Below, one piece after another: positions 24,501 through 51,600 of a stretch of DNA of 64,000 nt. This stretch comes from Lingula anatina (taxonomy: Eukaryota > Animalia > Brachiopoda): the NCBI GenBank assembly GCA_051362555.1, contig CM120647.1, positions 10,433,378 to 10,497,377 on the forward strand, read 5' to 3'. Under the pieces are notes generated by a model that saw nothing but the letters and a program-made list of their open reading frames with translations, made no database searches and was not told where the DNA came from. Each line of letters opens with the position of its first letter. The first letter of the stretch is position 1. The position numbers and the translations under genes are program-made.

Positions 24501-24879
24501 ACTTGTTTTTTGATTTCATAGATTACCCTACAATTCATTCATTTTCAAGTATAAATTTGCTAAATTACCTAAGTTAAATTGATTTTGTAAATTAATTGGT
24601 TATTTTTTCTTGTTCATCAGCTCAGTGATAATTTGTGCCTGGGGGGAGAGTGGCGCTTGTGCCAAACCTAAACATGGACCAATAGTGGCATCTCCAATTT
24701 TTCCACCAGAGGGCGGTGTGGTAGACACTCTAGGTGCTGGCGACTCATTCAACGCTGGCGTCATATTTGCCCTGAGTAGGGGGAAAATGTTACAAGAAGC
24801 TGTGTCATTTGGGTGCCTAGTTGCTGGAAAAAAGTGTGGATTTCGTGGATTTGAAGGTCTGAAAGGTTTTCCTCTTTGA
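20329..24879 (+). CDS. KHK: Ketohexokinase (PfkB family), 7 coding exons
   Basis: Exons 20329-20435, 21329-21445 (WQRGGNASNTSTVLALLG), 21843-21977 (NGSRTILH), 22280-22358 (YQWVHFE), 23141-23261 (GR...SVELEK), 24163-24277 (ADYVFVSKEHA) and 24621-24879 (CAWGESGA...VVDTLGAGDSFNAG). All GT-AG and in phase. Confidence 0.95.
22487..22891 (-). mobile_element. 5'-truncated non-LTR retrotransposon (RTE-like 3' end) in KHK intron 4
   Basis: Encodes FHNRCLRRI...RRFKWLGHVLRM...PGKRKRGRPKTTWRRT...DRAKW. It has a (GAT)n tail and a 10-bp TSD aatagagtgt at 22477-22486 and 22892-22901. Confidence 0.85.
23499..24055. repeat. Minisatellite, ~16 copies of a 34/36-bp unit, in KHK intron 5
   Basis: Unit tgtgttagatgtgacat(at)g[ga]tagcaat[ag]cattcag repeated head-to-tail with no unique spacers. 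Confidence 0.95.
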
Positions 24880-26751: not shown

Positions 26752-27683
26752 TGTCTACTCTGAAAACTACACAATTTAAAACGTTAAAATAAGTTTTTTT
26801 AGCCATCAGATATATTGTTCTATAACTTCAACAACTCACAAACTTTTGAATTTAAATTGTGCTCTTTTTGATGCATTGTTATTGGTCGACCCTGAAAATT
26901 TCTAGTCTTTAAGTAGAAAAAGTTTTCATGTTATCAATTAATCAAAAACACACCGGCACCTATCAGAAGTCACATAGGCTGACACAGCATTTTTTGACTG
27001 AAGATTTAATTTTTTTTTTTTTTTGACATGCCAAAACTAAAAAGGGTAGAGTCATGAAATTTCCAGCATTTATAAAAAAACAATTTATCTAAAATATTTA
27101 AAATTAATTGCAATACCTCCAAAACTGCTGAAGTTATTAAACTTTGAAATAAGTAATTTTTCTATTAAGTCACCTAATTGAGACATTTTTTAAAAATATG
27201 TGATATGGTTTTAAATTGTAAATAGATAAAAACAGATACAAAATCATACTTATAAATTTAAACAATAACATAGCAAGTTTGATTGAAAACGTGGACAGTA
27301 TAAAAAATATCAAGGAAACTATAATTATAAAACTACAAGAGTACATCTATATAAACATTTATGAAGTAGAAATAATAAATAATGGTCTGTTCTGCTGTAA
27401 AATTTGTAAAATTAAAAAAAAATTAATGTATGCATAAGACATTAAAAAAAAAAAATTACATAAAATTTGAACTGAGTTATAAGACTAGTGCAATAATTAA
27501 GCAATGTTCTTGAGATGATACAAATCTTGCAAGCCCTAATCATTTATATTTGACAAAATGTATCAAGGTTTGTTACATAATTGTTTTGGTTCTGACAATT
27601 CTTAACATAAAAACATCTTAGTCTCCTCTTGTCCATTGGTCTACTGTTATGGTTGCAAATCCACTGCAGGAGTTCAATAGTTA

Positions 27684-27918
27684 GGGACCATTCCCACAGA
27701 TATTTGGATCGATCTATCTCCCTGGGGAGTCTCACTAAATTTTTGTCAACTTGACCAGCTTAAATGTCTGTCATGCCTAGTAAAGCTGTTTGGGGATAGT
27801 TATCTTTATCCCCTAGCTGATTGGGTAGGCGTGACAGACATTTAAACCGGTTATTTGATAGCAATTTAGTGAGACTCCCATGGGAGTTAGATCGATCTCT
27901 AGGCATGGGAACCCACTC
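27684..27918. mobile_element. PIF/Harbinger-type MITE overlapping the stop codon of the HELZ2-like fusion ORF
   Basis: TTA duplications at 27681-27683 and 27919-27921. Carries the family's gatcgatcta/ggggagtctcac inverted blocks seen at 31518, 36354, 46779 and 59889. Confidence 0.8.
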
Positions 27919-28249
27919 TTAGAATGTGCTGTGGTGAATGCGGATAAAAAAATTGATGTAGTTCAGCTTCTCTCACTTTCAGTTTATTTGCACAATCAGA
28001 AAGGTTTTCATCTAGTAGTGCTTTACGTAAAGTAGAATATGGACGTTTGTCCATTTCTGCCTTCAAAATAACATTTAACAGTTTCCTGTTTGCCTCAGTC
28101 ATTGGCCCATTAAATTGATCTTCTTCATAATGTTCTATCATCCCAGCGGCCACCAAATGGTTCCTCATCATTTCTGGGTTCATTGTACAAATCAAATAAC
28201 GAAAACTACTTATAATTTTCAACTTCTCAAGCTTATATCGGCATGCTTC
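27899..28249 (-). CDS. Terminal exon: CARD-like death-fold domain
   Basis: KLKIISSFRYLICTMNPEMMRNHLVAAGMIEHYEEDQF...ANRKLLNVILK...PYSTLRKALLDENLSDCANKL follows the typical CARD six-helix pattern (L..L..HL...G.I...E; N..LL..I; Y..L..AL; A..L). Confidence 0.6.
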   Translation of the reverse strand, partial: EACRYKLEKLKIISSFRYLICTMNPEMMRNHLVAAGMIEHYEEDQFNGPMTEANRKLLNVILKAEMDKRPYSTLRKALLDENLSDCANKLKVREAELHQFFYPHSPQHILRVGSHA

Positions 28250-31200
28250 CTAAAAAGGAAAATTTAAATAACTTTGTCATAATTTAAAAATCATTAATGG
28301 TTGGTATAAATCAATAAAGCCATTGACATGCATTTGTTTTTCATATGTGGCAATGATTCCCCGTTTTGTGCCATCAAATCATTCCCCTGAAGAATTACCC
28401 AATGTGCTTTTCTTAAATACATCTAAAAAAATCCATTATGTTTTATCATGATAAATTACAAGAAGAATATAATACAGTGCAAACATTGATAAGTCATTAT
28501 ATTTTCATGCAAACTCAATGGGGAATAATTCAACTAATTACCTTCACTTGGTTGATGATGTCTCCTTCAAGAAGAGCTTCATTGCATAAATCCATGCATA
28601 AGAGATACAGGCGTCTCACATCTCCCTTTAACAACGTATTGAATATGACTTCCATGGTGACAACATAGGGGATGGGACAATTTGGTGGACCATTTAGATG
28701 TTTCAAAATACCTCCCCAAACATTGACCTTTTTAAATTCATCACTTAAAGAATCCCACAATTCACATGTAATGAACTGGCTGTCAGACTGAGCTGCATAT
28801 TGTTGACCGTGTGCTGCACCATACTGAACTAGTGACCCCTCAAAGCTTTGTTCCAAAGAGATTTCAGGATTGACTGATCCAGAGACACTTTCTGCCAATT
28901 CTACAGTGTAAGGCAATTCCCTCCTAGAATCATGTTCTCCCTGTCTGACTTTTGGTCGAACATCTGGTGATTTTACTGCGGTCTGCAATGTCCCATTTGG
29001 CATCAACTGATAATGGGAGTTAATATGTTCTGACACTGAATCTCCTCTTCTTGTAAAGGATTCTTCCAGCTCTTTCCTTGTTGTTTCTTCATTTTGTGGT
29101 TTTCTTGGCCCTTCATATGGCAATTCTGAATTCCCATTCATTTCTCCATATTCCAAAGACTGTTCAAAAGCTTCTTTCCTTTGTGTATTTTCATCACGTT
29201 TGGCATTATGATTTGAAACTAAATTTCTGTATTCAGAATGATTACCATTTGGCAGTGCCTTTAAAGAATCACCAGCCATAAGGAGCTGAAAAATATTTCA
29301 ATGCATTATGCAACAGTTGAAGAAAATTATAGCATTAAAAGAGACCAATTTTCAAAGTGAAAGGACATATAGACCTCTTCAGTCCATTCGCAGATTAGAT
29401 CAAAATAACAGATTGTGCATGCAGCACCAAAAATACAAACAATATGTGATTTAATTTCATATCTTGATTTAAGACATATATCGGTAATAATTATGATACT
29501 CCACAACATCTTGCTGAAATTTTCTATGGACTAGTTTTGAAGCATACCCAATTTTTTGTGATTTAATTTTCCACACTATACTAGTATCGATTTGATCTCT
29601 AGGTTCGTTAAGTCAATTAGAGACATGGAGATTCAGCGCAAGAGAAACACTAAACAGATATACCAGAACAATTGAAAAATACAATTCTATGTGAAAAAGC
29701 TATAAAAGAATCAAGCTGGTGGTACTTATAAGAGTAACCAATTATACATGCAGATCTACCGTAAAAGGTACCTGTATAAAAAAAAGGGGGGCTCATACAT
29801 TATCAATTTACCTCTTTAAGCATCTTTGTTATTACTATTTTTTTACAGGTATTATCGTCATTTTCCAGTTGAGCTTTGTATATCTTTATCTCACACTCAA
29901 TGACACTGGGGCACTGGCCGTCAGCAGGCTCCAAACGAAATACTGCACGTGTATCTATATCTTCAACTAGATCCAAATAGCTGACTTCCTGGAATCAGCA
30001 AACAGTTCATTCACACACACACACATATATATAACAGCTAGAATAGCTAGTTATTGTTATCATACCATTTAGCCCTTATCAAATTTGTGGTGGAATTTCC
30101 AAATGTACAAATACCAAGTTGTCAAACTGTTTCCACTTGTAGATCAATAACTTCAGAAGTCCTGCAGTTATAAAGTACTGGGCAGTAATACCACTTCAGA
30201 AATTCTACATTAACACATTTGCAGGATGGAAGACTGAAAAGATCTTTAAATTATTAGAATTATGTTATTTTCTACAATAATGATCACTACAGTAAAGAAT
30301 TTAACACTGAAGTTATGTTCTTTACTACCTGAATATGATCTTCTTTTCTAGTTAATTTCCAACAGTTTTCAAATTCACCAATTTCCAGACAAAGTCCACT
30401 ACATTCCTTGTGATGTTCACACAAGTATACAATGATACAGCGATAGTCAAGATACTTGAACTGCAATTTTGACATTTCTTTTTCAAGTTTCTGCAAGAAA
30501 AATAAATGCAAAAAAATGTAAAAAGCGACTGATAAACAACTGAGCCAGCAGAGGCTGTTAAATGTACAACACTGGATCTGTAGCACTCCATTAACGTGAC
30601 AAATGACGTATTAAAAAAAATAATCCTTCATTTCTTATTCTATGTCTGTTAAAACATTAAAATATGACCAAATGTTGAGCAATTACATGAAGCAATTATG
30701 AATATACCTCTCTTTCATCTGGCAGATCTGCTATGCAGTGAACATTTAGATTAAGTTTTCGTCTTTCTACATCATACAATTGCCCATAGGCTTGCACCTG
30801 CATCTTCTTTTTGTTGCATGAGGTGCTGTGTTTGGTAAAATGGTGCAGGCCAATTATACACCTGTTGTGTAGGAACATAGAAAAATAATTGTCCTTCAGC
30901 AGTTTCCAGTCACAACATTCATCAAACCCCGTTTCTGAGCTCCAGATGTTTTTTTGGGTATTTAGTCCATGTACATCAGGAATGCAGTGACTGATGGTTA
31001 AGAAGATCATCTTTTTAAACATCAATCCATGGGGCTCACAAAATACCACAGGGGATGTTTGTGCCTGATCAGGACCAACTGGGAGCTTGTCTTGTTCTCT
31101 TCTGGTAATCCCCAGAGTTATCAATGTTTGGCTTTCTAAGGCTCCTGGTGGTACATACAAGGAAACCCCTGTTCCAGGGAGAGTCAAAATACCACCCTGC

Positions 31201-34200
31201 TCATCCACCCAGAACTGGTAATAGTATAGTTCACCAGCTATGTTGCTTTCATAGTCAAAACATGGAGGTGTTCCTGGAGTGCTCGTTCCTGAGAAGGAAA
31301 ACAAAGAATTAGCTCTATCCTAAGTAATACTATGTAAATGTCCACAATGAGGCGCATTTTTCTATATCTTGGGATTATCGCCATTGTAACTATCGGTCAT
31401 GTAGATTGGTAAAAACTCCACGGGGACTCTAGCTGAATGCAGTCAGATTAGCAGATTAAAACGCGTCCTCCTGGCATTGAGTAGAATACAGAAAAGTTGG
31501 TAATCATATATGACTAAGGGCGCATTCCAACAGATTTTAGATCGATCTATCCCCATGGGGAGTCTCACTAGATTACTGTCAGATAATCCGGCTTAAATGT
31601 CCGTCCAGCCTACTATAAGCTGTAAGGGGGTAATTAACTTTCGTGCCCGCTCGGCTGACAGCTATTTAGCAGGGAGTTAGGTCAATCTAGTGTGGATCGA
31701 TCTAATTTCTGGGAATGTGGTCTAAGTTGGAAACAAGAGCGTATGCATCTGTTAATCTGATTTCATTCAGTGAGAGTCCTCGGAAGACCAGTAGTTTCAT
31801 TGGGAATGAGTTGAGGATCCTTATTTACCTTTTCAACTTTTTCATTTAATTTTTTTAAACCATCAAAATAATAATTTCAAAGAACTCTGTTTGAAAATTA
31901 CAAGTGCAGAGATGGGTTGAGCAGTGTTTCACAAAAAAAAAAAAAAAAAAAAAAAAACGACAAATGCTCCCCCCCCCCCCCCCCATTCTGGCATGTTTAT
32001 CTCTAACTTACTATCATATGTAAACAGGTACAAGGTAGAATAAATGTTTACAAAATGGAATTTCTTACCTCTACTCTGAGAAGACAGCGAACTATTTATA
32101 GTCCCTGTGCTTGTTGATAAACTGGCCACTTCAGTATCTATATACAAAGAAATTACAGTTAAATCTGTTGAAAATCATATCAGTAACAATGAACTAATGA
32201 GCAAATAAATAATTTATAAACAAAAAAATGATAATTACAATCAACACATGCTAGTATTTGATTTTTCGTCAAATTATTTATTTTCAAAAATTATTCACTA
32301 GTTTTGCTGACATGAAATATCTTTCCTATGCCAAATTGGTCAGAATTATTCATACCACTGATATTCGGTGTCTGTGTGTGTTGAAATGACTGTCATGTGT
32401 AATATTTACCTTACCTACCTGTATAATTTTCCTCATTTAAATTCATTTTAGGTTTCACATGATCTCTAAACATTTCATGGTTTCTAAATCTGGGTGGAAG
32501 GTCTGCAATGAACTTCTTTCCTACAAGAAACAGTCATTTATGGATGCAAAATATTTAGCAGTATCACTTTATTGATTTATCAGTGTGGATGCATAAAAGG
32601 AAAGACCAGGTATTGCTATAAAATTAATTTTATAGTAATTGTAATTCATCAAAGAGATAAAATAATGATTAGTTCAAAAATATGGAAAATTCCTCTTAAA
32701 GATAGAAAATTGCCATTAAGATGAGTTCAAGAACTGTTTAAAAAGCTGTCAAGCAACTTTCCTTCTTTCTTTAGAAGCAAGTGGGCAAAATTGGACATAA
32801 TAAAACATCAAAGGATGTTTTTTGCTTTTGATGAGCCATGATCATCTTTCCTACTTGTTATATTTCACAGCAGTTTGGGGGAAAATGAAACAGACATGAA
32901 TGAATAAATTTTTTATTCAATTTAACAAAAAAATAAATAAATGAATATTTAAAAACTAAACACCCTCAAACATTTTATTTGAAAGTTGTACAAAATAACA
33001 GCATAAAAATAGATAAATAAAAGACTTATAAGATTGTTTAAATCAATTTAAGTATTAAACTTAAAAAGAAAGCAAACATCATTTTTTATTTCTTATTCAA
33101 AATAGACATTACTTACTATCTGCGAACATTTCATATTGGTCTTTAGGTGTTTTCCTCTTGGGTCTTTCTATTAGAGGCATCTCTATCTCTTCAGGGAGAA
33201 AATCCTCAGCATTTACAACACATCCCTTTTCCTGGTAATATTCCAACAGTGACTTCCATACTTTGTCAACTTTAAGCAGATTGTCATTTCCTGAAATAAT
33301 ATATCATTCACATGGAATTCCTAGTTTCCGCAGTAAAAGCTCATGTCTGAAAAATGCCTACAGACATATACTGGAGCTTTAACATCCCTTTATTCTGGAA
33401 TATATACCCAGTACCACCCAACAAATTACTGCAACCAAAACTACACTGTAAGATGCTTAATGAAAGCAGCTACTTTTTGCCTATAAATACATTGTAAACA
33501 ACTCTTTAAAATATAATAAATTTTATTTTATCAGTTAAAGCAGAAATTCTGAAATTTGTGGTTGTCACGTGACCTCCATAGATGTCTACACTCTGTAATA
33601 ATCACTTAAGAGAATATTATAAAAAAAAACTTTTTAGAAAAAAAACAAGGACTAACTTTGAATGTGGAAATGGATTCATTAACCATTGGTACGTATGGAA
33701 AAATTATCCTTTATCCTAGGAAAATCCATTGTTTGGCCAAAATGAACAGTTGTTATCTTTATAAATATCGATGTCTACCCAACTTTTTTAAAAGTGCTTA
33801 TTTTACAAAAGCTGACAAACATATTAAAGTTGAATTTTCAAGCAAGATTTTTAGGGGTCAACATGTCAAGTTATTAAGGTAGTAATTAACAGTAAATTGT
33901 CAAAATTTGGGTGTTTTTCTGAATTTGTCAGTATTAGATAGATGAAATATCAACTACATATCAGCCTATCTTAAAATAATGGAAGTTTACAAATAAACAC
34001 GTAATTTTAGCCTAATTGCTGATTTACCCCTGTGGTAGCGTGTCTGAGTTTTAAAGTAGGTTTCACTTGTCCATATATGTGTTTGATTGGCAGCTCCACT
34101 GTGCAGCTGTATATTTCCCGTACTAGATTGCTGCTAAGCCTTTCACATTCTGTGAGTAACGTCGCGCTTTCACTTGCTAAACAATACTTTTCATTTTGAA

Positions 34201-37200
34201 TTTATCAGTGAACTTAATTCTGATGATCTGTTAAAGCTTTAAAAAGCAGACATATAGATGAGACGTATATGGGCAAAGGCACTCCCCCTAGGTGTCACGT
34301 GGTGAAGAAGGCTGAGGTCACGACTAACATGGTGGCTGCTGTCAATGCATGGAGGGGGCCTCCGGTTGAAAATGTTCAATAATAATGTTGAAAATGGATG
34401 AAAGACATAGTGACAGTTACATAGGCAGTGAGTAGAGGGCTGAACCAGTTTAAATAACTAAATTTCTCAGCTTGCCAATGCAGCTCACTGATTATATAAC
34501 GTTGGAATCTCCGGGGAGCACTAAAAGGCTGATTTCTCCGCTTCAGTTTATGGCTTCAAGAGAACGATTTAGACCAGTGTCAAAATAAATTAGAACTCTC
34601 AACCGATGAAAGCTGGTATTCATTCATTAGATCTAAGGTTTGTCTGAAAGTATGTGTCTGGGATTTCATAACATCAGCTCCGTTTTCAACTTAGGCATAC
34701 TTTAGTTAGGCTAGGGGGTCTCGTTGAACTGGAAACCAAGTTTATTTTGATATCTCTGCTAATTTAACACATATCGCTAATTTGAGGCGCATTCTTGTTG
34801 ATCCCTATGAGGGCTCACAAGTCAAGCTGTCTACACATGTCCATTTGTAGTGGACTTCTAGTTTTTAAGGTGTAAAGATTATGTTGAGCACACCTATTAA
34901 GCATTATATCTCATTACGTAACGATTACATAATAAAATAAGGATATGAAATGAAGAGCTGTTGAAATAAGCTTTCTATTGATATGTAACATGTTGGTATA
35001 TCTTGGCCGGTTTAGAAGATAGCTACCCCTGTTATCTACATCCTTAAGTGTATTATCTTGAAGCTATAGTTGAGTTGGGGGAGGGTTAGGTGGTTCAAAT
35101 GCACTGCCCTTTTGGTCAGAAAGGTTGGGTCACCTAGGAGGGAGGTAAAAAGCTACTTTTTTGATAAAGTACCTGGTCTCCATTCTGAAATCACCGACTA
35201 TACAGACTTGTCTTAAATGTTGCCCTTACCAACAATAATGAGTCCCTTCTTTGCTCTTGTTAGTGCCACATTGACCTGGTTAGAGTCTATGATAAAACCA
35301 AGGTTCTTTTTGCGCCATCCAAGAGTTGGCCTCTCAAGTATATCATAGTCTGGGAGAGAACGAACTGTGCTCAGGAGTACATAGTCCCACTCCCCACCTA
35401 AAGTGATAATAAATTTTAATTACATTGGATTCCGTTCTCTACATAAAGATGTATGGTATTTTACAGCTGCAAGCTAGGCAAAGGTGGAGTATTCATGAAA
35501 AGAGCATTTAACATAATATGCTTAACAATTACATATTATATGAGTAATAATAAAACAAGTGATAACAAAATGGGTATTCATATAAAGAACGTTGAAGAAA
35601 TGATGTTGTTGAGAATAAATATATACTTCAAACTTATATTGGTGGTCATGCGCTCCATCTATTGAAGAACTAAGTAATCACAATGTACATTAAGTAAGTA
35701 ACACTAACACTTATTATGCTTTCAAAACAATCATTAAAATTTCAGTAAAGCATCAACAGTATAAATACCCTGTGCTCCTACTACAGTGCTGACATTTGGG
35801 TAAGGTATTATTTTTTCCAGTTCTTTTTTTATAGCATACACCTGAGCTTTGTACTGGGACAGGACCACAATATTGGAGGGTTCAATGTTGTGTTTTGTGA
35901 CTAGATTTTTGTACATCCGCACCTGAAAACAATTGATAACAATGTACTGGTAGGAATGCATCTGTCAAATTAAAAGTGAAAGAAATCATACAATAAATGA
36001 TTATGAATCAGGCTAGCTGTATAATAAAAGTGGAATGTTTAGCATTTTAAGTTCACACAGCAGATGATATTTATCACATAATGAAGCTTACAACATGTTT
36101 CATTTCATCTTCGTTGCTCTTAGATCTCTCACTCCCTTCACGTGTGGCAACAGGCAGGGTTGTCTCCTTTCCTTCAGTACAGCAAAATACAATAGCTTGG
36201 GGCTCGTCCCTTCCTGACCAAATTTCCAACTCTGGTGACTTTCCTTTCAGTGATGAATCTGTCTCTAGTTTTCCCCCATAAAACTTCTCTGATGGAAACT
36301 GGCATATGGTTTCATGCTAAAAGCAAAAGTATGTAAAGAGTAAATTAAGGTTAGACCCCATTTCTATAGATTAGATCGATCTACTTTAGATCAACCTAAC
36401 TCCATGGGGGTTCACGCTAAATAGCTGTCAGCCGGGCGGACAAAGTTAATTACCCCCTTACAGCTTGTAGTAGGCGGGACGGACATTTAAGCCAGATTAT
36501 CTGACAGTAATCAAGTGAGACTCCCCGCGGGGATTGATCGATCCAAAAGCTCTGGGAGTACAGCCTTAGTCTTTCAGTCTGGCAGCTAGCTAATGATGAC
36601 ATTGTTCTAATTGACACTTTTATAGAGCAAGCTAAAACATCACAATTAAAGTAATAAGTGGCAGACTGACAGCTATTCTTAAGCTTACCATTCTGTACTG
36701 AGTTTTAAGCATCATAGCCTTATAGGAGTATCTTTCAAACAATGACAAGGCAAGACCCAGATCACTTGCTGCTTTCAGAGGAACCACTGGACGTAACTGA
36801 CGATGGTCTCCGAGAAGGATTACTTGGTAAGCATTTGAAGCAACTATTGGCACCATTGTTTCTGGTTCCATGCACATTGCTGCTTCATCTATCATAAGCT
36901 GCCTGAAGTTTAAACCAGTCAATTTCTGGCTACCACTGACAGAGCAGGTACAGAGGATGACCTCCGCTTGCTGTAGAGCCTCCTGTTCTGCCTTGGCCAC
37001 TGTTGCTTTATATTTTGTCACATCTTCATGGGTTACAAGAAGAGGTTCCGTTTTGAACATCTCATCAAATTGAAGGATCTTCTTGCTATAACGGTTTGAA
37101 CATTCCCTGATCAAGTAGTGAAGACTCTGAGGTATGCAGTGAACATCAATTTCAGTGTCATCCTCTTCATCTCCATTCGTAGACATTTTTTTCCATGATC

Positions 37201-40200
37201 TCCTGTGTACAGGTTGGGTAGGAACGGGAAAATCTTGGGACACAATTGTATCACTATACACACGAACAAAGTTTGGACAAATGTTTTCCTTGTCTTTCTG
37301 GTTAAAATGATACATCATCATAGCTAAAAATAATATTATAGAAATTTAAAAAAATCAAAATTACAAAAGAAAAACAGAAAATAAATAAATTGTCCACTAC
37401 AATTTCAAAATTAATGTTACTCAAATAAAAGATTGCATTTATGCATTTAAATTAACAAAAATAGATCCATTCCTGTGACAGGTTTTGATGGTTAATGAGG
37501 TGGAAAAAGACTTAAATGAAAAAACAAAAATTTACGCTCGGCTGTTTGGGTGTGCATGCATGTGTGCATGTTAAAAGTTTTACAAAACTTTTAAAGTCAA
37601 AATAAATGAGCTGCTTTTTGTTCGACAATGTTCTGCAGAAGAATTATCAAAGTGAAGAAATCTGTAACCTACATGCTAAATGGTCCAAAGATTTGTTAGA
37701 TGGCCCACACACCAAGATCTTTGGAGAAGTGTCAGGATCTGCATTGTTCAACCCTTGTTTGTTCCATTCATTCAAGATGTACAACATGTTAAGTGCTGTC
37801 CAGGTTTTGCCAGTTCCTAGAAAATGACAGGGTTCTCCATATCATTTTTAATAAACAGTTATAATAAAGTACAATGGCTGAATATTCCATGATTTCTTGT
37901 ATGTGTCACAAAAAAAAAATTAGTAAAAAAAGTTTTCACCTACATCAGCAAGTAATTTTGATCTTGGTAAAAAGGTTTTGACTGAGTGGGGGTACTACCT
38001 TTCCCTAATACACATTCTTAGTTTCACATAAATTATTCATAGCAACTCACATTTCCAAAAGGGTTAAAAAATTCTGGTCACAGTAAGTGTCCATGTTTAT
38101 AATTCTTTCAAGTAATAAATGTTAAAATTCATAAATATGACGAATGTAGGTTTGGCATTTAATCGCACAATAAGCTTCATTTTGACGAACAAAACAAACC
38201 CCTGCATGAGCATGATAAATTTTTTACCTGGTGGCCCTTGTATGAGTGAAAAAGGAGAATTCAGTGCTTCAGTAACAGCGTTCTTCTGACTAAAGTTCAT
38301 TTTTGCAATGTATCTTTCTAGTTTCTTCTGGCTGTCTTCAATGAATTCTTTGGGCACTTTAATCCCTGTAAAAGATAAATTGAAGCTTTTGCTTAAGAGA
38401 GAACATCTGTGACATCATGGTAGCAAAGCAATTTTTTTAATCCTTAAATTCTGAAATAATATCTCAAAACCTTATATTAGTACTGATTCTGACTCCACAA
38501 AGAAACAAATTACCATTCCTTAAATAATTTAATTTGAACTGTATGGTAATAGTATCAACAAACAGCATGAGACCATAAAAACTGGCGTCTGCACTGCAAT
38601 TCACTTCTCCACAACTTTAAATTTCATTAAACTCTTTCCAGCTAGGTTCTTGCTCTTATTTACACCTAACTTACAGTGTACACCTCTTTGATAACAATAC
38701 TTCAAGTAATGTCTGCTTTGATAAATTTCTGTTGAGTGGAGATCATATAGAGAAATAATATCCTGTATTAAATTAAAAAAAAAAAAAACACATACTTACA
38801 CTTTTGATAAATTATAGTTTTGCCCCAAACCCTCTCAACTGTACCCTGTATCACATACCTTCCCTAGTTTTGTCAATATCTGATAAGTTTCCAGTTGCAA
38901 TGCCTTTTGCTAATGTAGATGCCTTGTCTAGATTCTCAATGGCATGTTCCATCCTCCTTTAAAAATAAAAAAATCAACTTCAATGTTGCACATTAGGTTA
39001 TAAAAACATCATCAACGAAAAAGGCTACATATATAGAGAGTTCATTTAACAAATTGTCACAAACATTAACATTACCATAAATAAATATCTCAACACCGTA
39101 TCTTTAATCAATATACAATATATACTCAGAAAAACAATACATACTTATCTGTTGAAGTCTTTGGAATCACTTCTAACGTACACACACTTGGCTGCTGTAG
39201 CATTTTCTCTGTAGGGTGACAAGACTTATCATGTAGCTTAAAATGAATGTAACTTCCTTGCTCTTTCACACCAGTAATCACTCCATGTCCAGTCCAGATG
39301 TAACTTTCACCTTTGTCCCTCTCCCCCATTTGTTCCCTCTCTCCATAAGTTTGTGCTGCAGCTGGAATCCTTGGGCAAATGATGCACAAATACTCTGAAA
39401 AATGCTCCAGGTCATTGGTTTCCTCGCTGTCACTTTCATCTTCATCCTCATCAGCATCAGAATCTTCCACTTCATCTCCGTTCACATCTTTCATGAAAAA
39501 AATATGTCTTTGCTTGCAAAACTCTTTACCGAGGCTAAACTGACCTTTGTATACTGGCAGATTATTTTTCTCATCTTGTATCCAAGTGATTTTAACATTG
39601 TTTATGTAAAAAGATTCATCAGACTTGACTGCTTCATAGGCAGACTCCATGGAAAGGATTGGGCGCCAAATCTGCTGGTATTCATCTATGTCACGGTAGC
39701 GTTCTTTGCTAGCCTTACTGGCCATATCCTCGAAACATATAATAGGGTTCTCTTTATGGTGCACACACAAATGAAACTGGTCAGTCAAACTCAAAATCTG
39801 TACCCTTGGACGTAGAAATCCTCGTTCAATCTCAGCTGTGAAAAATAACTTTAAAACATCTCCCCCTTTAAGCAATAGAGAAAACTGTTTGAAGTGATCA
39901 AAAATCATTCCGCCACCTGGTGATTCTGAGGTTAGATAAGGATCCACTTGCCTCCGTTTCACATTTTTCACAATTTTCTGAAGAAAATTTTTTGACCCAT
40001 CTTGGTCCCCCTTCACGAATTTGTCTAACATGATCTGCCAATCCCTGCCTGCAATCTGACGGACATGCCTTTTTGTATCAAGTTCTGTTTGGCTTACTGA
40101 TAATGCCTGGCTTTCATTTGGTATTTGGTCATAAATTCGCTTTCCCCAAGCCAGCACAGTTCTTGCTTTATTATCCTCTGGCAATTCAGGCTTTTCTTGC

Positions 40201-43200
40201 AAGGAAAGGGATGCATATTTGATTGTTTCACATCTCTTTGGGACAAAATTGTAATCTGGATTTCTGAACAGAATGTGGTCTTCTTCCATGGCCTCTACTA
40301 TTGTATAATGAGGCCTTACAGGGTCACTGGACAATTTAAAAGCATAGGCTAAACAATCACAATCCTTACTAAAATGTTTCTGTTTCAGTACACCAAGATT
40401 GTAGAGATGGCATATTTTCTGAACTGCTTCTGAATTATATGGGGATGCCATGTTCCCCAAATGTGCTTTCAATAATCTGTGCACAATCAGATCAATGTAT
40501 CTGCGCACTGGAGAAGTAAACTGGGTATAAGGTCCTATGTTCATTCCAGAGTGTACTATTTCATTAGGTTTAACATAAGCAGAACAAGTGACTCTTCGGT
40601 GCATCTGAATACTGAACCACTGTTGTAATACATGGGCATGCTGAGGATGCTTTTGCTCCTGACAAACAAGAGTGAAAGCGGTCTTCCAGTCATCACAATT
40701 AACAGCATTCTCTATTGCTTTCCATATGTCTTCCTTTATTTCAACCTTAGGCATAACATATTGTGGAACATTACCAAGACATGGCAATTGTAATCTATGG
40801 GGGTCAAAGTAAAGCATATTTGGCAGGAAATGCTTGAAGTTATCTTTCCAAATGGTGTATAATTCTTCCCTTGGAGGAAGATGTTGCACCAGAATTGTGC
40901 TGTCAGGGTATGCCTTCAAAAGGACTCCTGCCACATGTTTGTTTGCTTCTATCATCCACTCTTCCACTAACTGGTGGCTCTTAAAGTTTGATGAATCTTG
41001 CAAATGGTCAGCATCATAAAGGAAAAAAGCTCCGGTTCCTAAACGCTTAATACGGAGAGCATGTGACAGGTCATAAAGCATTTTCACAGGAAAAAACTCC
41101 TTGGTTGTTGTCTGGTCTTCAATTATTTGCTCCACTTCATTGTAATTCAAATTTTTGTTACAACATATGACAGATTCCACAATGCTAGGCTCTTTGGTGA
41201 ATAAACCATCTTTGTTTATGGTGAAAATAACAGATATTGTCAGCTTATCTTCCCCACTGCGCAAACTACAGAGATCTTCACTAAGTCTTGGAGGCAGCAT
41301 GTGATAGGGCTTGTGATCTTCACAATTGGGGTAAAAAGTTACACTGCGCACAATGGCTTCCTTGTCAATGGCTGCCTCAGCCTCAACATAATACGCAACA
41401 TCTGCAATGTGCACAATGACTTGAAACTCGTTTTCATTATTTGTTTCCTCACAACTCAATGCATCATCAAAGTCTTTTGCATTCAGTGGGTCAATGGTAA
41501 ATGTGTAGATGCTCCTGAAGTCTTTTCTAGAGTCTAATTCATTAGATGGGATTTTATAGTTATTGCCATAGATTGTGTGTAAAAGCTTTCTACTTTGTGC
41601 AGTGAATTGATGGGTCAGACGGTATTGGATTTTCAGCAACTCCAGCCCATTTTCCAATGAATTTGCTGCTGGTTTCACATCTACCACCACTCCCAAAGGA
41701 TATCGGCAATGATCTTTCCAGGTAAGATATCGCACAATGAACAGCCTGTTGTGCTTGCTCTGGGGTTTTATCATTTCCGTGTATACTAATTCCATTTTTG
41801 CTTCATTGTCTCGTCCTTCCTTTACTCTGTATACACTGACAGAATTTTCCCCACCATGTTTATTGAAAATCACTACCTTGGGCATTGTTTTACAAATAGG
41901 TTTCATCAAAGAACAGTTATAGTCATCAACACTACAGATGAGTTTGTACTCTTTAGGTAGGGGTAGGTGGGCAAGGACACCAAGGACCCTGCCTCTTTTC
42001 ACAATTTCACCTGTAGAAGGGTCAACAGGATCTATTGGCAAGTCAAATATCTTGACCACAACTTCTTCACCACTAAAAGCTTGACCACAACGCTGTCTTC
42101 CATAAATCTTAATTTTGTCCACAGATGCATCTCTCTGAACTGGAATGCATGTTGCTTCTTGTGATGTGTCTATCTGGAAAATACATCTCTTGTATCTGTC
42201 AGGATCTTCTTCAAGTTTCTTTCTTAGTAAATGTGGCTCCAAACATTCATAATATGATTTTAGACCTCTGCTGCTAAAATAATCTGAACACATGTCCCCA
42301 GAACAGTCAGACTCCTCAGAATATGTGTCAATATCCAAATAACTGTTCTGTAACCATTCATCTATGCGTTTGCGTTTGTCACCATACTCTATATCTAAAA
42401 TGCTTCTACTTTTAAGGGGGATCTTGGCGGGTTTTTGGTCATACTCTTTTTGCAAGGCTTTCATAATAGCATCAGTGTCAGGATGTTCAATATCTGACTC
42501 TGCATAACCATCTCTGCCAACTGGACAGGGAGAATTGCTTCTGGATGATTCTGTTTGTGTTGAACAAATGGAAACCTCACTCCCACTATACTGACTATAG
42601 CCAGAGCTGATTCCAGAATCCTCTGAAACACTTGATAATACTGTATCAGAAAAGGTGGGACTGTCTGGACGCATTTTCATGGTATCTTGCATTTCATTTT
42701 CAGACATAATATAACTGTGAAACTGTTCCAAAGACTTTTCAATCCACTGAAGGTTTACATTAGCAGGTTTCACACCTTCATGCTGTGCTGATATATCCAA
42801 GTATCTTTTCCACACACTCTGACACAAACCAACTGAACATAAGGCAAGAGGATCGCCGATCACCATGACAAGAGATCTGGCTCTTGTAAAGGCAGTATTC
42901 AGAAGTTTTGGGTCTGACAATACTCCCAGATGATGACCTTTTTGTTTTTTATCACTTACCAGTTTTTGTTTTGTACAAACTGTACTCAGTAGTATGGCCC
43001 AGTATTCAGTGCCTAAAAAATATCAGCATCCGTAAATATTTACCATTGCCTTAGACCCCTTTACCACACCTATATCGGATCGGACCTAAAAGGATCAGTC
43101 CATCTCCAAGAGTTTCTCCCTAAACTGCATTCAGCTTAAGTGACTCTGATGTCTGGCACACCTACTGAAGCTGTAAGGGGATATCGCTTAGTAGCTTCAG

Positions 43201-46200
43201 TAGGCATACCAGGCATCAAACAACTTAAGCTAAACGTAATTAGCAATGATCACCTCAGAGATGGGTCAATCCTGCTAGATCGATCTAGGTATGGGAATGG
43301 GGTCTAACAATCAAAAGTACTTCTTATGGCTATGAAAAGGCATTATTTTGTTTAATTCAGATATAATCAAACCTACTTTGTGTGTCAACAAGCCCTTGGG
43401 TATTAAGATTTTTATTACACTGCATACTTAATGGAAAATAAATTTACAAAGAAATTACAGAACTGGTAAAACAGGAGATTGAATACAACTGATATGATTG
43501 GATGAAAATGGCCATTGCACATAAAACTTAATAATTACCCTGGGCATTCTCAATTACATCCACAACAACTTTCTTAGAGTGGTGGCCAAGGTCCTTCCCC
43601 TTGAGAGCATTTCTGATACACTTCACCTGCAAAATTTATTTTCATTTGATGTGCATATCTCGATCATTTTAATTTGCCTATTGTGCAAATTCGCTTGAAG
43701 AATCTGTGTCCTTGATACATTATGTACATGCATGCAAAATGCCAACAAATGTGAAGAAAAGTCACAGATGAGAAATATGAATAAATTGGATACTGGGATA
43801 TACTGAGACCATTCACTAGACCATTCACAACAAATGTGAAGAAAAGTCACAGATGAGAAATATGAATAAATTGGATACTGGGATATACTGAGACCATTCA
43901 CTAGGTAAATGACCTGTTTAAACTGAGATCCCTTTCTTGTTCAATGTTGGCTTTTCCAACCATTCCCAAATGGCTTCTTTGATGCCATGTTTGACCCACT
44001 TTTATCCAATGGGTAAAAGAATGTTTACTATACACTAGGGCCCGTATTCCAAGATGTTCCTTAAAATAGGGCTAAGGTCAACTTTTATAAAGGCTTCCTT
44101 TGATGAGATGTTCCTTGGTAAAGGAAGGCCTAACGAAATGGTATTCTAAGACCACACTTTAGCCTCTCCTTTGATAAGGAATTACTTTGACAAAAGTCAG
44201 CCTTTAGGTAAGGGACACTGACATAAAGGAGCTCCTCATTGGTTAGAGTAGGCATTTGTGACACCCTCCTTGTTAAAAATGCCTCAGTAATATTGTATAA
44301 TTGGGGTCAACTGATCAACTTCATTCATGCAACAGCGCATATGGACATTATCACTGCATTTGGATTTTTTGATCTAAGCCAAATTTAGTGAACAAAGCAA
44401 ATATGGCAAGAAGAGAACATAATGGTTTGGAGGATGAGAAAACCAAAGTCGTAGACCCCTTTCTGATATCGAAAAAGCAGCTACTGATGCAACTAGTCAA
44501 CAGAGAAAAGCCTATCCTCGATCAAACCCCTGTTTGTTTGTCTGTCTTTTTGTTACCTCCACCAAGTAGGTTATGTTTTCATCCCGTTTGTTTGTCTGTC
44601 TGACTGTCTGTCTGTTGGTTTGTTTGTTTGTCATCAATATAACTCAAAAAGTTACAAGCAGATTTTGATGAAATTTTCAGGGTAGGCCAGAAATGGGATA
44701 TATTTGAAGTGATTAGTTTTTGGTGGTGATCAAGATCAATAATCAATCAATTATCATTAATAAAAAAAACTCAAAAAGTTATGGACCGATTTTTATGACA
44801 TTTACAGGGTAGGTCAGAAATGGGTTAACTTAGAAGTGGTTAGTTTTTGGTGGTGATCAAGATCAATAATCAATAATCACAAATAAGTCAAAAAGTTATA
44901 CGTCGATTGTGATGAAATTTTCATAAACTGTCACAAGTGGGCCAAGGAACAGATGATTCGTTTTTGGTGGTGATCTGGATCAATAATCAATCAATAATCA
45001 AAAATAAAAAAACTAAGTCATTATTGAATGAAAATTGGGTGGAGACTTCACTCTCGGAGTGCTTTTCTAGTTGAATAAATTGATTTTGAATTTAGGCAGG
45101 CATGTTGGTTTATATAGTCCTCCGTGGAGCTGATTTTCACAAGAGAAATGTACACGATGGCTGCTTAAGGAAGACTAAAGTTACTCCAGACCAACCTTAC
45201 ATTATGAGGAATCCTCAGGCGAAAATAAAGGAAATCTTTAAGAAAAGCAGATTCTAGAAATGACCGATTCCTTTGCTAAGGATTGTTAAGTGATTCCTTT
45301 CAAGTGAGATAAAGAAAGGTCTTGGAATACAAATGTTGTATAAGGTCGACTTTAAGTCTCCCTTAACGCTGAAGGGAGATTCTGGAATACGGGCCTAGAT
45401 ATTTATTTGATACAACTTTCCAGTGGTTAAAAACTCTGCTACCCTCAGGATAACTATCCAGAGGTTTACAATTTTATACAAAAGATAGTGTTATCCATAG
45501 AATAGTGCTATCCAGTATTAATGAAACTGGGACCAGATGACCAGTCCATCCACATCATTTACCCAGTGAAAGGTCCTAGGTTGAGACCACAATGTCAGTT
45601 AGTTGCTGTAGGAAAGTTCCAGTATCAGAGTCATTCATATTTCTCATTCTTATTCTACTGGAGTCATTCATATTTCTCATTCTTATTCTACTGGATGCCT
45701 CACAACATTTACTCAAGTTACAGGTATGACAAGAAAAGAATCACCGAAATGTGAATAAAGGTGCAGAGTGACATTTCCTGTAGTCTGCAATGTGGGAATT
45801 AGAAGCTTATATTTAAAATATTACTTACCTGTTCATAGTATGGAGTAAGAATAGCTATTCCATCACTGTCCATTTGCTCTGCCAAAGGCCATGATTTAAG
45901 GAGCTTCTCAGTTTCACTGGCAATTGCTTCTGCTTCTGCAATGTTATAGTATGACATACCGCACTGGCTGAGTTCCTGCTTTCCTTGAACCATACAAAAT
46001 GATAAAGGAAAATAACCTTCAAAATGTGGAATTTCTCGTCTTGAACATAATTTGGTTTTATAGAATACATCAGAGACAAAGTCCAAGATTTCCCGGCAAT
46101 TTCTGTAGTTCCCCGAAAGAACAACTTTGTACTTAGTGTCTTTTCCTTTTTCGTAAAGCCTAAACAACCTCTGAAACATGGTCTGCTGAAGCCAGGGTCG

Positions 46201-47624
46201 CACAGCATTGCAATACACATTTGGGGTTACTTGCATATGGTCACCAGTGAGACAAAGTACTGTGTCTTTGTTGGCCAACAGTAATGGAATCAGACTTTCT
46301 GGTTCTATTGCTTGTGCTGCCTCATCTATCAAAATGTGTGTAAACTTCCCAGACACACTTGTATCAAACAGCAAAATGGAAGACTTCAGTGTAGTGATAA
46401 TGATGTTGCTTTTTTGTAGCCTGGATTCACTGGGCAAGGTTAGTTTGGTATCATCATGTTCACAATACTGTAAAATGTCTGTGCGGACATCGCATATGGA
46501 CTTTTGGTCTTCATAAACCCTCAGAACACTCACTGTTTTCCCCCTTTCTTTCAGGAAGGGTTGCAGGTACTTCAGAATATAAATATCAGCAGCACTGAAA
46601 TTAACAAATAAAAGTAAATTATTATAATGTTGTTCAATATTATACGAATAAGTATCTAAGTTTTAACAATTGCTTAATGATTCCCCCATATTCAAGAATA
46701 TTTTACAATCACCCTCGACTCACCAAAAGAGGTACAAACCAGCTCAAAAGTAAAATGCACATTAGCACTGATGATTAAGGGCGCATTCCCACAGATTTTC
46801 GATCGATCTATCCCCGTGGGGAGTCTCACTAGATTACTGTCAGATAATCCGACTTAAATGTCCGTCCCGCCTAATACAAGCTGTAAGGGGGAAATTAACT
46901 TTCATGCCTGACACCTGACAGCTATTTAGCGTGAACCCCCAGGGAGTTAGGTCGATCTAGTTGGATCAATCTAATCTCTGAGAATGGGCTCTAAGACTAC
47001 TGTTAAATGTGCTGTGAGTACAGTGCCTTTACAAACACATTATAGCAGCAGAAAATTCTATTACCTATCTGACTTGCAGCATATAAGACAACGCTGCTGT
47101 GTGACACTGATCATATTCAACATGGCCTGTGAGAGGGTGTAAGTTTTTCCGCTGCCAAAAGGACCATATACTATCAAGGGAGGCTGCTTTATATACCCAG
47201 TCTTCTTGCTCAACAAATGACTTACAATCTGCAAGTTCTTCTCCTCAAAATTCTCACTCATGCTGAAAGTAAATTAATTATTGCAATTTTAATTTATTGA
47301 GTACACAGATATCTGCAACGTGAGGGACTGTCCCAATGTATTAAAACATCTTGCTTTATTGTGTGAAAAAAGTATAAATATTGTTATTGGAAGTATCACA
47401 TGATAGCCATGACTTAATTGTTATAAAATACTACTCAATAAATAACATAGGGAGAGATCCTCTACTGCTTGACCTCTATTTATCAAGGAATAGTCACAGT
47501 GGTAATAAATGGCAATCAATCAAGTCTCACGGTTTAGCATAAATTCATTCTATAGGCTCAGGTGATTCTAAATGCAGTTAAGTTTATTTGAATTTAAGAA
47601 TATTTCACTGCATGAATTTCATTT

Positions 47625-47679
<55 letters not shown>

Positions 47680-48565
47680 AAACCAAATTGTAAAGTTTGC
47701 TAGTTTTCTTTTGGATTTTAACTACTCCCTCTGAAGTCTTAAGCATTAGTCACTTTAGCCAGAGGTAATGGGCTAGTTAAAAATAAAACAAAAAATTATA
47801 TAACACTGGCTCACTTTGAGACCCTTACTGGCTAAAGTGCTAGTGTCCTTTGTCCTTTAAAGAAACAGACTGATCATGTCACTCATACTAAATACATTGT
47901 ATAAAATTATGCTTGCCTCACAGGTTTGTCCTCAACACTGACTAATGCTGGATTGATCTTGGAAATATCAGGAAACAGCTGGTCCACGTGCCCAAACATG
48001 TCAACAGCAAAGCCCATTAATCTTAGGTTTTCTTTGTCCAGCTGAAAACTGATTTTCAAATCTACTTCCGGCTTCCCATAGAGTTGCAACTCTGCAGAAC
48101 AAGTTGGTGAAAGGATTATCCTAATGCTACTCCCCTGGTCTACCAGTACAGTGGTATCTTGCCTGTACTGACCCTTGATGAGAACAGCTTCATAGGCCTT
48201 ACAAGCTGTGGGCTCAATTGCCATTACATACACCTTCTTGACATGATTGGATATCAAGTGCCCTTGTTTTCCATCACAACTCAGTTCAGGAGGGACAGGT
48301 GCTCTAGCCTCAATACAATCACATGGTACGTTTTCACCGTCATCTTCAAATGGTAGCAGTTTGCATGTTGTCTGCAGCATGGACCTGAAATTATTTAAAA
48401 CTGATATACCTCTATTGTTTAATACAACCATGTTAACCAGGACCTTTACATTAAATTTTGTCCACTCAATGGCTTCAGGGATTTTTTTTTTTTTTTGGGG
48501 GGGGGGGGGGGGGGTCAGAATACAGCACATTTTATGCCAGAGCTATATAAAAGGACTAAAAATAA

Positions 48566-48604
<39 letters not shown>

Positions 48605-51600
48605 CTCAACACCTAAGATTGATGTCACGGAGAATTATTGACAATCAACAGATTGCACACAGAATCCTTTAGTCCCAGAAAATTTCCATGAACTGATCAA
48701 GGAAACACATTGATTTTAAATTCTTTCAGCTACAAAAATGTTAAGTTATCCTAGAGGTGGTTCATATAGAACATTTTATGCATGTCAAAACAAAATTTTT
48801 AAGAAATTTAATATTTTGTTTATGCAGCTGAACAATTTAAATTATGTCACCTTTGTAGAAGTTTTTCCATCTCCAGTTCTTCCAAATCTAGCCAACGTTT
48901 CAGGCAATGCTTGTAATTGTGTTGGTTTAAGTGAGTGGTATATTCATCAACAGCTGTTAAGGACTGCACTTTGACAGCAGGATTTGTTTGCAGTCGCTTT
49001 TGACGATTTAAAAACTCTGTTATCAACCCAGATGTCAGTTTACATTTGGGAAACGGCTCCAGTTCAACATTTCTAAACATTTCATCTGTCATAATTTGTT
49101 GCCTTGCACTTTGTAGCTCTTTCATCTCATTCTCCTGGGCCAGGTCCACCAAAAGTTTGATTTGCAGATGGGGTTTCTCTCCAAAGTCCAGTATCAGCCA
49201 CTGCTCAAAAGAACCGACTGGTACATGAGAATGGAACAAAACTGGGATGGAATATTTGTTTTTCGCCACATCTGTGCAGAATTCCTCTCCATCTGCAAAG
49301 TCTTTGTTGCTGCTTCTCAGGCAAAAATTCACTCTGCCAGTATGCAAAAGCAAGGAGATCTTCTTTAAATTCACCTAGAAAGATATAAGATATATACAGT
49401 TACCTCTTTTTAGAGCACACCAGAAGAAGGCACTTAAAGATTAATTTCTATAAATAAAAAGTCACCAAAAAAAGAATTCATTTTATACTGTTTAATTTCA
49501 TGTAATCAAGTATAGAAAATGTAAGCAAACAATTTTGGAGTAAAACAAAACAAAATATAAGACAAAATATAGAGATTTTATGATGCTTCTTCTTTACCTG
49601 TGATAAATTAATTATTGAAAAAAAACGGTGTTTTCCTAATTTTGAAGAAACTACCTGAACATTGAATTCTGAACCCTGAAACACATTCTGTATTACCTTA
49701 GCTGTGACATCAAACTGCCATTCATAATCCAATCTTCCATCAGTAAATTCTTCTTTCACTATTCCCGCTGGACATGCAACCCCATTCACCTCCACATCAA
49801 CATCTTCAAGGTGATCCTTGAGCTGTAAAATATTCATCAAACCAGTGATCATTACTTTGGCCAAATTGTCAAATTAACGTCATTTTCTTCATTATTCACA
49901 TTATCCCAAATAATTTGCTGAATTAATTAAATATAATGTTCTCTTTAAATGATATCCTTTGTTACAAAATTGTGGAATCTACCTTTCCTGGGAAGTTTTT
50001 GTGTTAACATAATAAATTAATTTGAAACTGTTTAAAATAACCAGGATATTCATGATACAATTTAACATAAAATGAAGAGGAGTTAAATGATATGATGGCT
50101 GTAGGCACTTTTCACACTGAGCACTGTGACTGAGTTCCCATACCTAGATCTATCTAACAGGATTGGTCCATGTCCAAGGGGTTTCACGCTAAATTGCTTT
50201 CAGCTTAAGCAGCTTAGATGTCTGGCATGCCTACTAAAGCTGCTAAACCATAATAAATGACCCCCTAACAGCTTCAGTAGGTGTGACAGACAAATATTAA
50301 ATGTCTGTGCTAGTTAGCCTACAGTGATACACAGAACTGTACCACTCTATGGGAACATTCCCATAATCCTATTGTACTAGCAGGATCAAACTATCTCTGA
50401 GGGGACTTTCACTAAATCGTATTCAGTTTAAGTCTGCACAAAAGTTAATTACTTCCTTAGCAGCTTCAGTAGGCATGACAGACATTTAAGCCGCTTAGAC
50501 TGAATATAATTTAGCAAGAATCCCCTTGGTGTTAGATCGACCCTGCTAATACAATAAGTGTATGGGAACCTAGTCTATGTGAAAAAGACCTAAGATGGGA
50601 GGTCACCTTTCAGTTAAGAGTCGTATTATACTGTGTCTGCACTAAACTGCATGCTACCCTTTGAACTACACATTACACAGTACATACCACTGCCCCTCCA
50701 AAGTCTTTGTATTCTTCCATTAATCTGTTCACATAGTCAAGTTGTTTTTTATCTCTGTTGATTTTCATTCGTCTTTTCTTCTCATCATGCCTCATCTTCC
50801 ACTCCTGGAGTTCCTCCTCACTGTGAGCCTGTGGGCAGTAGTTGCCCAAATCACACGCACCAGGGCTAAAATATGTACATGTGTAACACATATTATACAC
50901 ATCAAACATATCTCATACTTGTCTAAAACAGTAAAGATAAGCGCTATGTAAATCACACAGCATAAGGTTTCTAACATTTTTCACTTTAAAGTACTTTTAG
51001 TTGAAATTCTTTAAATAAAAATGACACTATTCAGGTCCGTAGCCAGCAATTTCAAAAGGGGGGTTCTTTTTCTGAAAAAGTGGACCTTTTTTCATAAAAA
51101 CTTCATGAACCTAGATCTAATTTTACCCAGAGTGGACCTTTTCCCACCATAAAGGGCAGTTCTTTCGAACCCCCCCCCCCCCCCCGAACCCCCTGCCTAC
51201 GGGCCTGCTATTTGATAATCATTAACAGATAAATGCCATGTGGTTTATTTAATGCTGTCTTAATGACCTGCAGATGAACTTTGCTGCATGATTAACATTT
51301 TTGCACAGTTTTCAATCTTGCACAAACCAGAAGTCAGTGTTTGAAGTAATGGTAGACTATGATAAGTGTGAGTTAAGGTCCTTTTTTCCCAGATTGTTAC
51401 AAGGTTATAGTGACACTTATACATGTAACAAATGTCAGGGAAAAAAGGATCAGAGGATACTAAGTTGAAAAAAAATTCGGAAAATTCTTTGAGTACGAGT
51501 ATTTCATGAGTAATTCTTATGCTTATGTTAAATTAAAGAAATTACTGATCAGGCAAAATTACATTTGGAAACTAAGATTTAAACATTTGGACAAGTAAAC

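Follow-up and report, generated by a model that had tools for sequence, protein, structure and literature searches.

NLRP1 and CARD8 have been shown to sense through their own destruction. Autoproteolysis of ZU5 domains is well known (PMC10084454; PMC3482391; papers are cited here by identifier), and ZU5 domains are also present in cnidarian NLRs (PMC8260672). In PIDD1 and NLRP1 the cut is constitutive and necessary but not sufficient (PMC7883297; PMC7483925), and PIDD1 needs local concentration as well as cleavage (PMC7883297). Human HELZ2 (PRIC285/PDIP1) couples a 3'-5' RNase to RNA helicases, is induced by interferon, and restricts both dengue virus and LINE-1 (PMC10516660). Here we describe a HELZ2-like helicase-RNase-helicase gene of the brachiopod Lingula anatina that is joined, past its second helicase, to a ZU5-UPA tail which likely ends in a CARD (caspase recruitment domain) and which we predict to cut itself. 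The gene lies on the minus strand of a stretch of 64,000 nucleotides (assembly GCA_051362555.1, contig CM120647.1, positions 10,433,378 to 10,497,377 of the forward strand), hereafter the window. Positions are those of the window, and residue numbers throughout are those of the database protein XP_023931638 (P0035, 2025 aa), named "helicase with zinc finger domain 2-like". It is the fusion to HELZ2 that is new, and not ZU5 autoproteolysis itself.

The tail shares with PIDD1 and UNC5CL the order ZU5-UPA-death fold and a His-Phe-nucleophile motif at the ZU5 end, with His at -2 (PMC3210808; PMC9162469; PMC10084454). It differs in having Thr and not Ser, a single ZU5, a CARD-like end behind a 165-aa linker and a helical domain, and an N-terminal half made of helicase and RNase instead of leucine-rich repeats (LRRs) or a membrane anchor. 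With NLRP1 and CARD8 it has in common the fold (VIA-align Z 15-16, ~245 residues), the predicted cut position, a CARD-like end and a large N-terminal half, but identity is 8-11%, the motif is HF|T against SF|S with an upstream His, there is no NACHT-LRR, and the new N-terminus would be Thr-Lys. An earlier note on this DNA, made from the sequence, had likened the region to a FIIND. That likeness did not hold: Pfam FIIND matched 0 of 73 aligned members at E 0.001, in the Atlas the ZU5 clusters score above those of FIIND, and the tail is a UNC5CL-like ZU5-UPA instead. The predicted chemistry is of the PIDD1/UNC5CL type and the layout resembles NLRP1/CARD8, but this is not a FIIND protein. GAIN/GPS and MAIN domains show the same H-x-|T chemistry with a Thr nucleophile, the same register and a cleaved last strand that stays bound, whereas they are extracellular adhesion domains at 5-14% identity with neither UPA nor death fold. 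The closest solved folds are the ZU5 domains of UNC5B, ankyrin and ZO-1; UNC5B reads Q-L-G at the site and is uncleaved, and ZO-1 simply ends at His-Phe.

The predicted cutting site and the tail

The tail is made up as follows.
31288-30708, minus strand: ZU5/UPA exon with AG/GT ends, encoding LHHFTKH
30813..31229, minus strand: ZU5 domain including its last strand (residues 1375-1513), from Pfam ZU5, the model, and Foldseek and VIA-align to UNC5B, ankyrin, NLRP1 and CARD8
30834..30842, minus strand: His1504-Phe1505-Thr1506, predicted autoproteolysis site (codons 30842-40, 30839-37 and 30836-34; predicted cut between 30837 and 30836)
29812..30812, minus strand: UPA domain, in three exons (30812-30708, 30490-30329, 29988-29812), from the model, structural alignment and splice joints
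28788..29285, minus strand: linker, ~165 aa, mostly of low confidence in the model
28542..28787, minus strand: helical domain, ~80 aa, common to the Lingula paralogues (hhalign to the family death-domain profile: probability 14%, E 0.002)
27899..28249, minus strand: last exon, with the CARD-like domain and the stop codon (27901-27899), from profile and paralogue matches

The HFT codons lie within LHHFTKH, as first read. The motif alone means little, because HF[S/T/C] is expected 0.35 times in a protein of 2025 aa and the RNase region of this one has two further HFS; for a given site, the chance of one falling inside +/-2 residues comes to ~9e-4, and HFT here occupies the homologous site. The family profile puts it opposite the Q-L-G of UNC5B, and the Leu of that triplet (residue 137 of a chain numbered from 541) is L677, which D'Osualdo et al. 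equated with CARD8 Phe296, the residue before the cut (PMC3210808). Residues 25-103 of the exon match Pfam ZU5 at E 2e-17. In an AlphaFold2 model of residues 1368-2025, with a predicted local distance difference test score (pLDDT) >90 over most of model residues 11-290, F138-T139 (that is, Phe1505-Thr1506) sits between strands 130-137 and 140-145, and the predicted ZU5-UPA supramodule is supported by its match to UNC5B (Foldseek E 4e-20, with an rmsd of 2.9 A over 309 columns; VIA Z 24.5).

Structural alignment, of the kind that the earlier note had advised, puts HFT at the predicted scissile turn. In VIA-align against the model, the GAIN chains 4dlq, 5kvm, 6v55, 8hc0, 7qu8 and 8vti and the ZO-1 chain 2kxr stop at model residue 138 (Phe), and five other GAIN chains continue to 145-147. 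The C-fragment of NLRP1 (6x6a_G) begins to align at 139 (Thr), with its residue 1214. We take NLRP1 to cut at 1212|1213, one residue off this start, and the five chains besides 4dlq among the GAIN chains stopping at 138 presumably end at their own cut sites. The last aligned residue of 4dlq, 837, is the P1 Leu of latrophilin-1, which is cut at H836-L837|T838 and which a change of Thr to Ala unfolded (PMC3321182). That protein, together with a bacterial GAIN-like domain in which a Ser-to-Thr change restores cleavage (bioRxiv 10.64898/2026.05.12.724683), bears out the supposition that Thr can act as the nucleophile. The earlier placing of HFT at the end of ZU5 stands on model and alignments, while the strand that follows it, T1506-N1513, is in the model the last strand of ZU5 and not a UPA strand, because ZU5-only chains align as far as model residues 146-147 and UPA-like matches begin at 148. 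As far as sequence and model can tell, the locus has the mark of the PIDD1/UNC5CL type, a His-Phe-Ser/Thr/Cys in the turn that leads into the last ZU5 strand. The fragment from Thr1506 to the stop would be 520 aa and ~60 kDa, close to the ~500 aa first estimated.

A conserved upstream His, His1455, was rejected as catalytic base: UNC5B, ZO-1 and ankyrin have an equivalent His, so it is probably structural. His1503 is not conserved.

Relatives were sought among 1.84 billion representatives, with 363 matches, and the alignment comprises the 150 listed. Among these the site reads HFT in 72, HFS in 25, HFC in 6, HFA in 2 and SFS in one, with about 24 rows lacking coverage. Ser, Thr or Cys, the three residues that support the acyl shift (PMC9162469), stands two residues past the His in 103 of the 105 rows that have it, counting the query, and at the same place in 15 of the 22 that lack it, and the three exchange on several separate branches in a tree of 70 of 126 rows. 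To judge from these sequences, the family looks selected for a nucleophile at the site. HFT is the ordinary and commonest listed state of a large invertebrate UNC5CL-like family with echinoderm, hemichordate, amphioxus and brachiopod names; three of ten nearest relatives looked up are called 'UNC5C-like protein' in databases, and the vertebrate UNC5B match reads QLG. Although identity of the ZU5 exon with its nearest relatives is no more than 35-39%, His, Phe and Thr are all kept. Given the position of the motif in a confident model and the pairing of His with a nucleophile among relatives, we therefore consider self-cleavage at Phe1505|Thr1506 probable.

Past the ZU5 domain, Pfam UPA has no match in this copy and matches 37 of 73 aligned members. 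The end had been read as UPA, death domain and CARD, of which the CARD fared better than the death domain. In a profile with three paralogues the CARD-like exon matches the Apaf-1 CARD at E 1.4e-6; alone it reaches E 0.33, with seven of seven matches to Apaf-1. The exon itself has no Pfam match, its paralogues match Pfam CARD or CARD_2, and a C-terminal CARD is moderately supported and likely. The helical domain, which has no Pfam or PDB match, is possibly a degenerate death domain, to which its hhalign score lends weak support; an Atlas search with the helical tail gave scores of 0.79-0.82 with CARD and Death clusters included, which we treat as a lead only. The UNC5B alignment extends to model residue 634, a hint of closed packing that is given no weight because the folding alignment placed the death domains of relatives in those columns.

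Fusion of the tail to a HELZ2-like enzyme

Upstream of the ZU5 exon the gene comprises the following.
55821..58899, minus strand: N-terminal Cys/His-rich zinc-finger exons (Pfam zf-met in the open reading frame 58651-58989; tblastn of HELZ2 relatives)
45826..52023, minus strand: further zinc finger and SF1 (Upf1-like) helicase 1 (Pfam zf-met, AAA_11, AAA_12; motifs)
39144..43013, minus strand: one large exon with the end of helicase 1, OB folds and RNB 3'-5' exoribonuclease (Pfam RNB E 3e-69, OB_HELZ2 E 1e-22)
33117..38954, minus strand: SF1 helicase 2, eight exons, the end point of other HELZ2 proteins (Pfam, motifs, splice joints)
32520-32419 and 32137-32069 (within 32069..32520), minus strand: two short linker exons, from splice joints, with phase-1 introns on both sides

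The HELZ2 layout is present, with N-terminal zinc fingers and a pair of Upf1-like SF1 helicases flanking OB folds and RNB, and identity to HELZ2 is 26-34% over the RNase region; the Lingula protein differs in its ~750 extra residues past helicase 2. Both helicases and the RNase look active, judged by intact catalytic motifs: Walker A GPFGSGKT (at 47165) and Walker B IDEAAQ in helicase 1, GPPGTGKT and IDEAAM in helicase 2, and all four catalytic aspartates of RNB (DPLNAKDFDDA). Eleven joined GT-AG exons from 36316 to 27899 give an open frame of 968 residues from helicase 2 to the stop, identical to the last 968 residues of the database protein. The NCBI model begins inside the RNase domain and is 5'-truncated, because the window stays open there (43013-41301, in a 1,298-codon frame). 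Matched stretches sum to at least ~3,370 residues before Phe1505 and at least ~3,890 in total, and the 5' end of the gene lies beyond the mapped part. Short open reading frames of TPR-like look at 60385-61209 (minus strand) may be more of its 5' exons. A distant Lingula HELZ2 paralogue (P0004) is truncated before helicase 2.

Six of nine same-species RNA runs were mapped to the window. Among the joints listed, 13 of the 15 introns from the RNase exon to the stop were seen, the other two lying inside helicase 2. The helicase-end exon runs on without a stop, and RNA reads cross all eight introns between 35229 and 28249, where the CARD exon begins. In runs X7, X8 and X9 (three of four runs) every intron as far as the CARD exon is crossed, and a separate mapping adds reads over the 35229/33289 joint. 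The fusion of HELZ2 to the ZU5 tail is present in spliced RNA, as the earlier note had supposed when it joined the tail to the helicase and RNase. The reads are short and give a chain of joints rather than one full-length molecule.

The source of X7-X9 is another population, a sister species or a close paralogue. In X9, four reads (against eight for the normal joint) use a donor 70 bases inside the last helicase exon (33187-32520, minus strand), where a base difference in those animals creates a GT. Read in the letters of the window, this frame meets a stop codon 29 residues past the helicase, which would leave either an ordinary-sized HELZ2 lacking the tail or a target of nonsense-mediated decay. 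In the ZU5 exon (30747-31197, minus strand), 10 of the 19 differences listed in the diverged runs change an amino acid, a count that is not a dN/dS estimate; none of those listed falls at 30834-30842, although the list is incomplete and does not by itself establish that HFT is constant there.

With the RNase region as query, 34 long proteins were found, of which 32 are HELZ2-like. None of the 32 has an annotated ZU5, Death or CARD domain or a blastp match to the tail; 31 end no more than 52 residues past the last helicase match, and the remaining one is without helicase 2. A ZU5-tail profile run against proteins of 1886-5000 aa (3500 candidates) returned P0035 alone, which as a blank is weak evidence, and a word-indexed search with the ZU5 exon gave no match among 420 candidates. 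Our literature search, which did not extend to Heinz 2012, Liao 2014 or Gerdol 2018 (the last of these on Lingula immune genes, and one that could mention the gene), found no report of a HELZ2-ZU5 fusion, and XP_023931638 is absent from 12 of the 13 supplements of one Lingula-ZU5 paper. The architecture of HELZ2 with ZU5-UPA and a CARD-like end is real, expressed and apparently undescribed.

The tail is also found on separate Lingula proteins: P0036 (C2HC zinc fingers, ZU5, CARD-like), P0039 (CARD, ZU5) and P0041, and P0043 has ZU5-UPA in common with it. Because it exists separately in Lingula and phase-1 introns flank the linker exons, we infer that in this lineage HELZ2 acquired the tail by grafting, as a mobile cassette. 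Elsewhere, the ZU5 family is attached to LRR-TIR and NACHT proteins, the NACHT protein reading NFS. An amphioxus protein named toll-like receptor 2 (P0059) carries LRR, TIR and then ZU5 with HFT, and P0071 has TIR, ZU5 (HFT) and a death domain, so the cassette sits on Toll-like proteins too. Comparable grafts have been described: RIG-I-like receptor (RLR) helicases of Lingula carry death effector domains (DEDs) and caspase domains (PMC8998645), and in brachiopods and cnidarians TRADD-N proteins occur as fusions with RNA helicases and RNases (PMC8195603).

Proposed mechanism and its alternatives

We propose, with a little more confidence than doubt, that this is a HELZ2-like enzyme with a self-cut tail, whose 520-residue fragment stays clipped on and signals once unclipped or clustered. 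His1504 would deprotonate Thr1506, which would attack the Phe1505 carbonyl in an N-O acyl shift followed by hydrolysis. The motif's own His would be the likely base, as it is in PIDD1 and Nup98 (PMC9162469), and the cut would most likely be constitutive after folding, as in PIDD1. The earlier note had autoproteolysis itself releasing the fragment, which does not fit: because the fragment carries the last ZU5 strand, cleavage alone would not free it, and the new N-terminal strand TKHSTSCN would stay in the ZU5 sandwich. Halves likewise stay bound after the cut in CARD8, NLRP1 and GAIN-type domains (PMC3210808 for CARD8). It may be, too, that ZU5 lies over the death fold, as it does in UNC5B. 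Of the possible triggers we rank loss or unfolding of the ZU5-bearing half, including the case of a virus attacking the RNase, a little above clustering on RNA. The ZO-1 ZU5 (2kxr/2kxs) ends exactly at His-Phe, like a pre-cut N-fragment, and in 2kxs it is followed by a peptide from a partner; a partner that swaps in its own strand could be another way of releasing the C-fragment. UPA-assisted oligomerisation of the CARD-like end would then recruit a CARD caspase or adaptor. Candidate partners exist in Lingula, which is reported to have GSDME (PMC11508797) and six caspase-Y CARD caspases but neither caspase-2 nor PIDD (PMC11463336). UNC5CL, in which cleavage is also kept, offers a precedent.

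Several points weigh against this proposal. The fusion is seen in one species, Lingula anatina. Each joint is covered by a small number of reads (about 4-26 when the runs are added up), most of them from X7-X9, animals several percent diverged from the window. The case for cleavage consists of sequence and model arguments; our literature search found no paper showing ZU5 cleavage at HFT and no direct report of Thr as a ZU5 nucleophile, the commonest state in the 150 listed relatives. The Fisher value of 5e-5 for the pairing of His with a nucleophile overstates the case because the rows are related, and other, non-catalytic columns reach 88-93% Ser, Thr or Cys. Three of the four named Lingula tail paralogues have lost the His (NLC, NLC, QFC), so the cassette can persist without it. 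The CARD-like exon alone folds poorly (pLDDT 50) and has no significant fold match.

A special case of our proposal is the strict viral tripwire of the earlier note, in which a viral protease or ligase would act on the HELZ2 half, the proteasome would follow and the fragment would be freed, as in the functional degradation of NLRP1 and CARD8. By analogy this is credible but on balance unlikely. The order of parts is that of NLRP1 (large N-terminal sensor, ZU5, cut, UPA, CARD); human HELZ2, being interferon-induced and restricting dengue virus and LINE-1 (PMC10516660), suggests a plausible viral target; and the amino-acid changes among the differences listed in the ZU5 exon (10 of 19) point the same way. 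However, no virus, antagonist or degron was identified, and the N-terminal half, of at least ~3,370 residues, is far larger than that of NLRP1, with ZU5 at its far end. The new N-terminus would be Thr-Lys against Ser-Pro in NLRP1, and Pro stands there in 2 of 103 HF[S/T/C] rows; a Thr-Lys start leaves a DPP9 check possible, because CARD8 also lacks the Pro.

The tail may instead be uncleaved or unused, HFT having been inherited with a recently grafted cassette that serves as a scaffold, as in UNC5 and ankyrin, or is carried as a neutral passenger. We believe this improbable, though it has real points in its favour: the best structural match is the non-cleaving UNC5B, the His is gone from most of the named paralogues, the fusion is known from a single species, and the alternative X9 donor yields HELZ2 without a tail. 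It fits poorly with the retention of His, Phe and Thr at so low an identity to the nearest relatives, and with a tail frame that is open across eight exons and spliced in animals several percent diverged.

We are slightly more doubtful of a proximity sensor like the RLRs or PIDD1, in which HELZ2 copies would gather on foreign or structured RNA and their tails nucleate a death-fold assembly, with cleavage as licence and no need to destroy the enzyme. PIDD1 does require cleavage together with local concentration (PMC7883297), the helicases and RNase look active by their motifs, and both the Lingula RLRs with grafted DED and caspase (PMC8998645) and the TRADD-N fusions to RNA helicases and RNases (PMC8195603) would be parallels. 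However, HELZ2 helicases are described as monomeric and Upf1-like, degrading the RNA they bind (PMC10516660), and not as filament formers. Finally, a merging of two adjacent genes in assembly or annotation, to which the joint-by-joint reads and an NCBI model starting inside the RNase might point, is very improbable given a helicase-end exon that continues without a stop and introns each spanned in X7, X8 and X9 as far as the CARD exon.

Wider meaning and other features of the window

We tentatively suggest, as a possibility that we hold to be unlikely as yet, that the self-cut HELZ2-like protein is an invertebrate NLRP1-like guard built independently on an antiviral effector: the HELZ2 RNase would be both enzyme and bait, and a self-cut ZU5 latch would free the CARD fragment once viral action destroys the enzyme or jams it. 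A ZU5-UPA-CARD tail on an antiviral RNase bears on whether the logic of destruction was reinvented on an invertebrate effector enzyme. Marine invertebrates carry the His-Phe-Thr cassette on proteins of LRR-TIR, zinc-finger and death-fold kinds. If the suggestion is right, release by destruction may therefore be a module that animal immune systems shuffle and use generally, and not a speciality of vertebrate NLRP1 and CARD8. We know of no experimental system for brachiopods.

A short palindromic repeat resembling a miniature inverted-repeat transposable element is present in at least six copies (27683-27921, 31517-31641, 36428-36557, 46778-46902, 50160-50543 and 59920-60089). It attracts many RNA reads from elsewhere, and one copy overlaps the last codons and stop of the HELZ2-like gene. 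The neighbours in the window are not immune-looking.
9955-16945, plus strand: homeodomain gene
18407-20095, minus strand: RRM protein
22501-22932, minus strand: apparent retroelement fragment, judged by eye
24583-24876, plus strand: PfkB kinase exon

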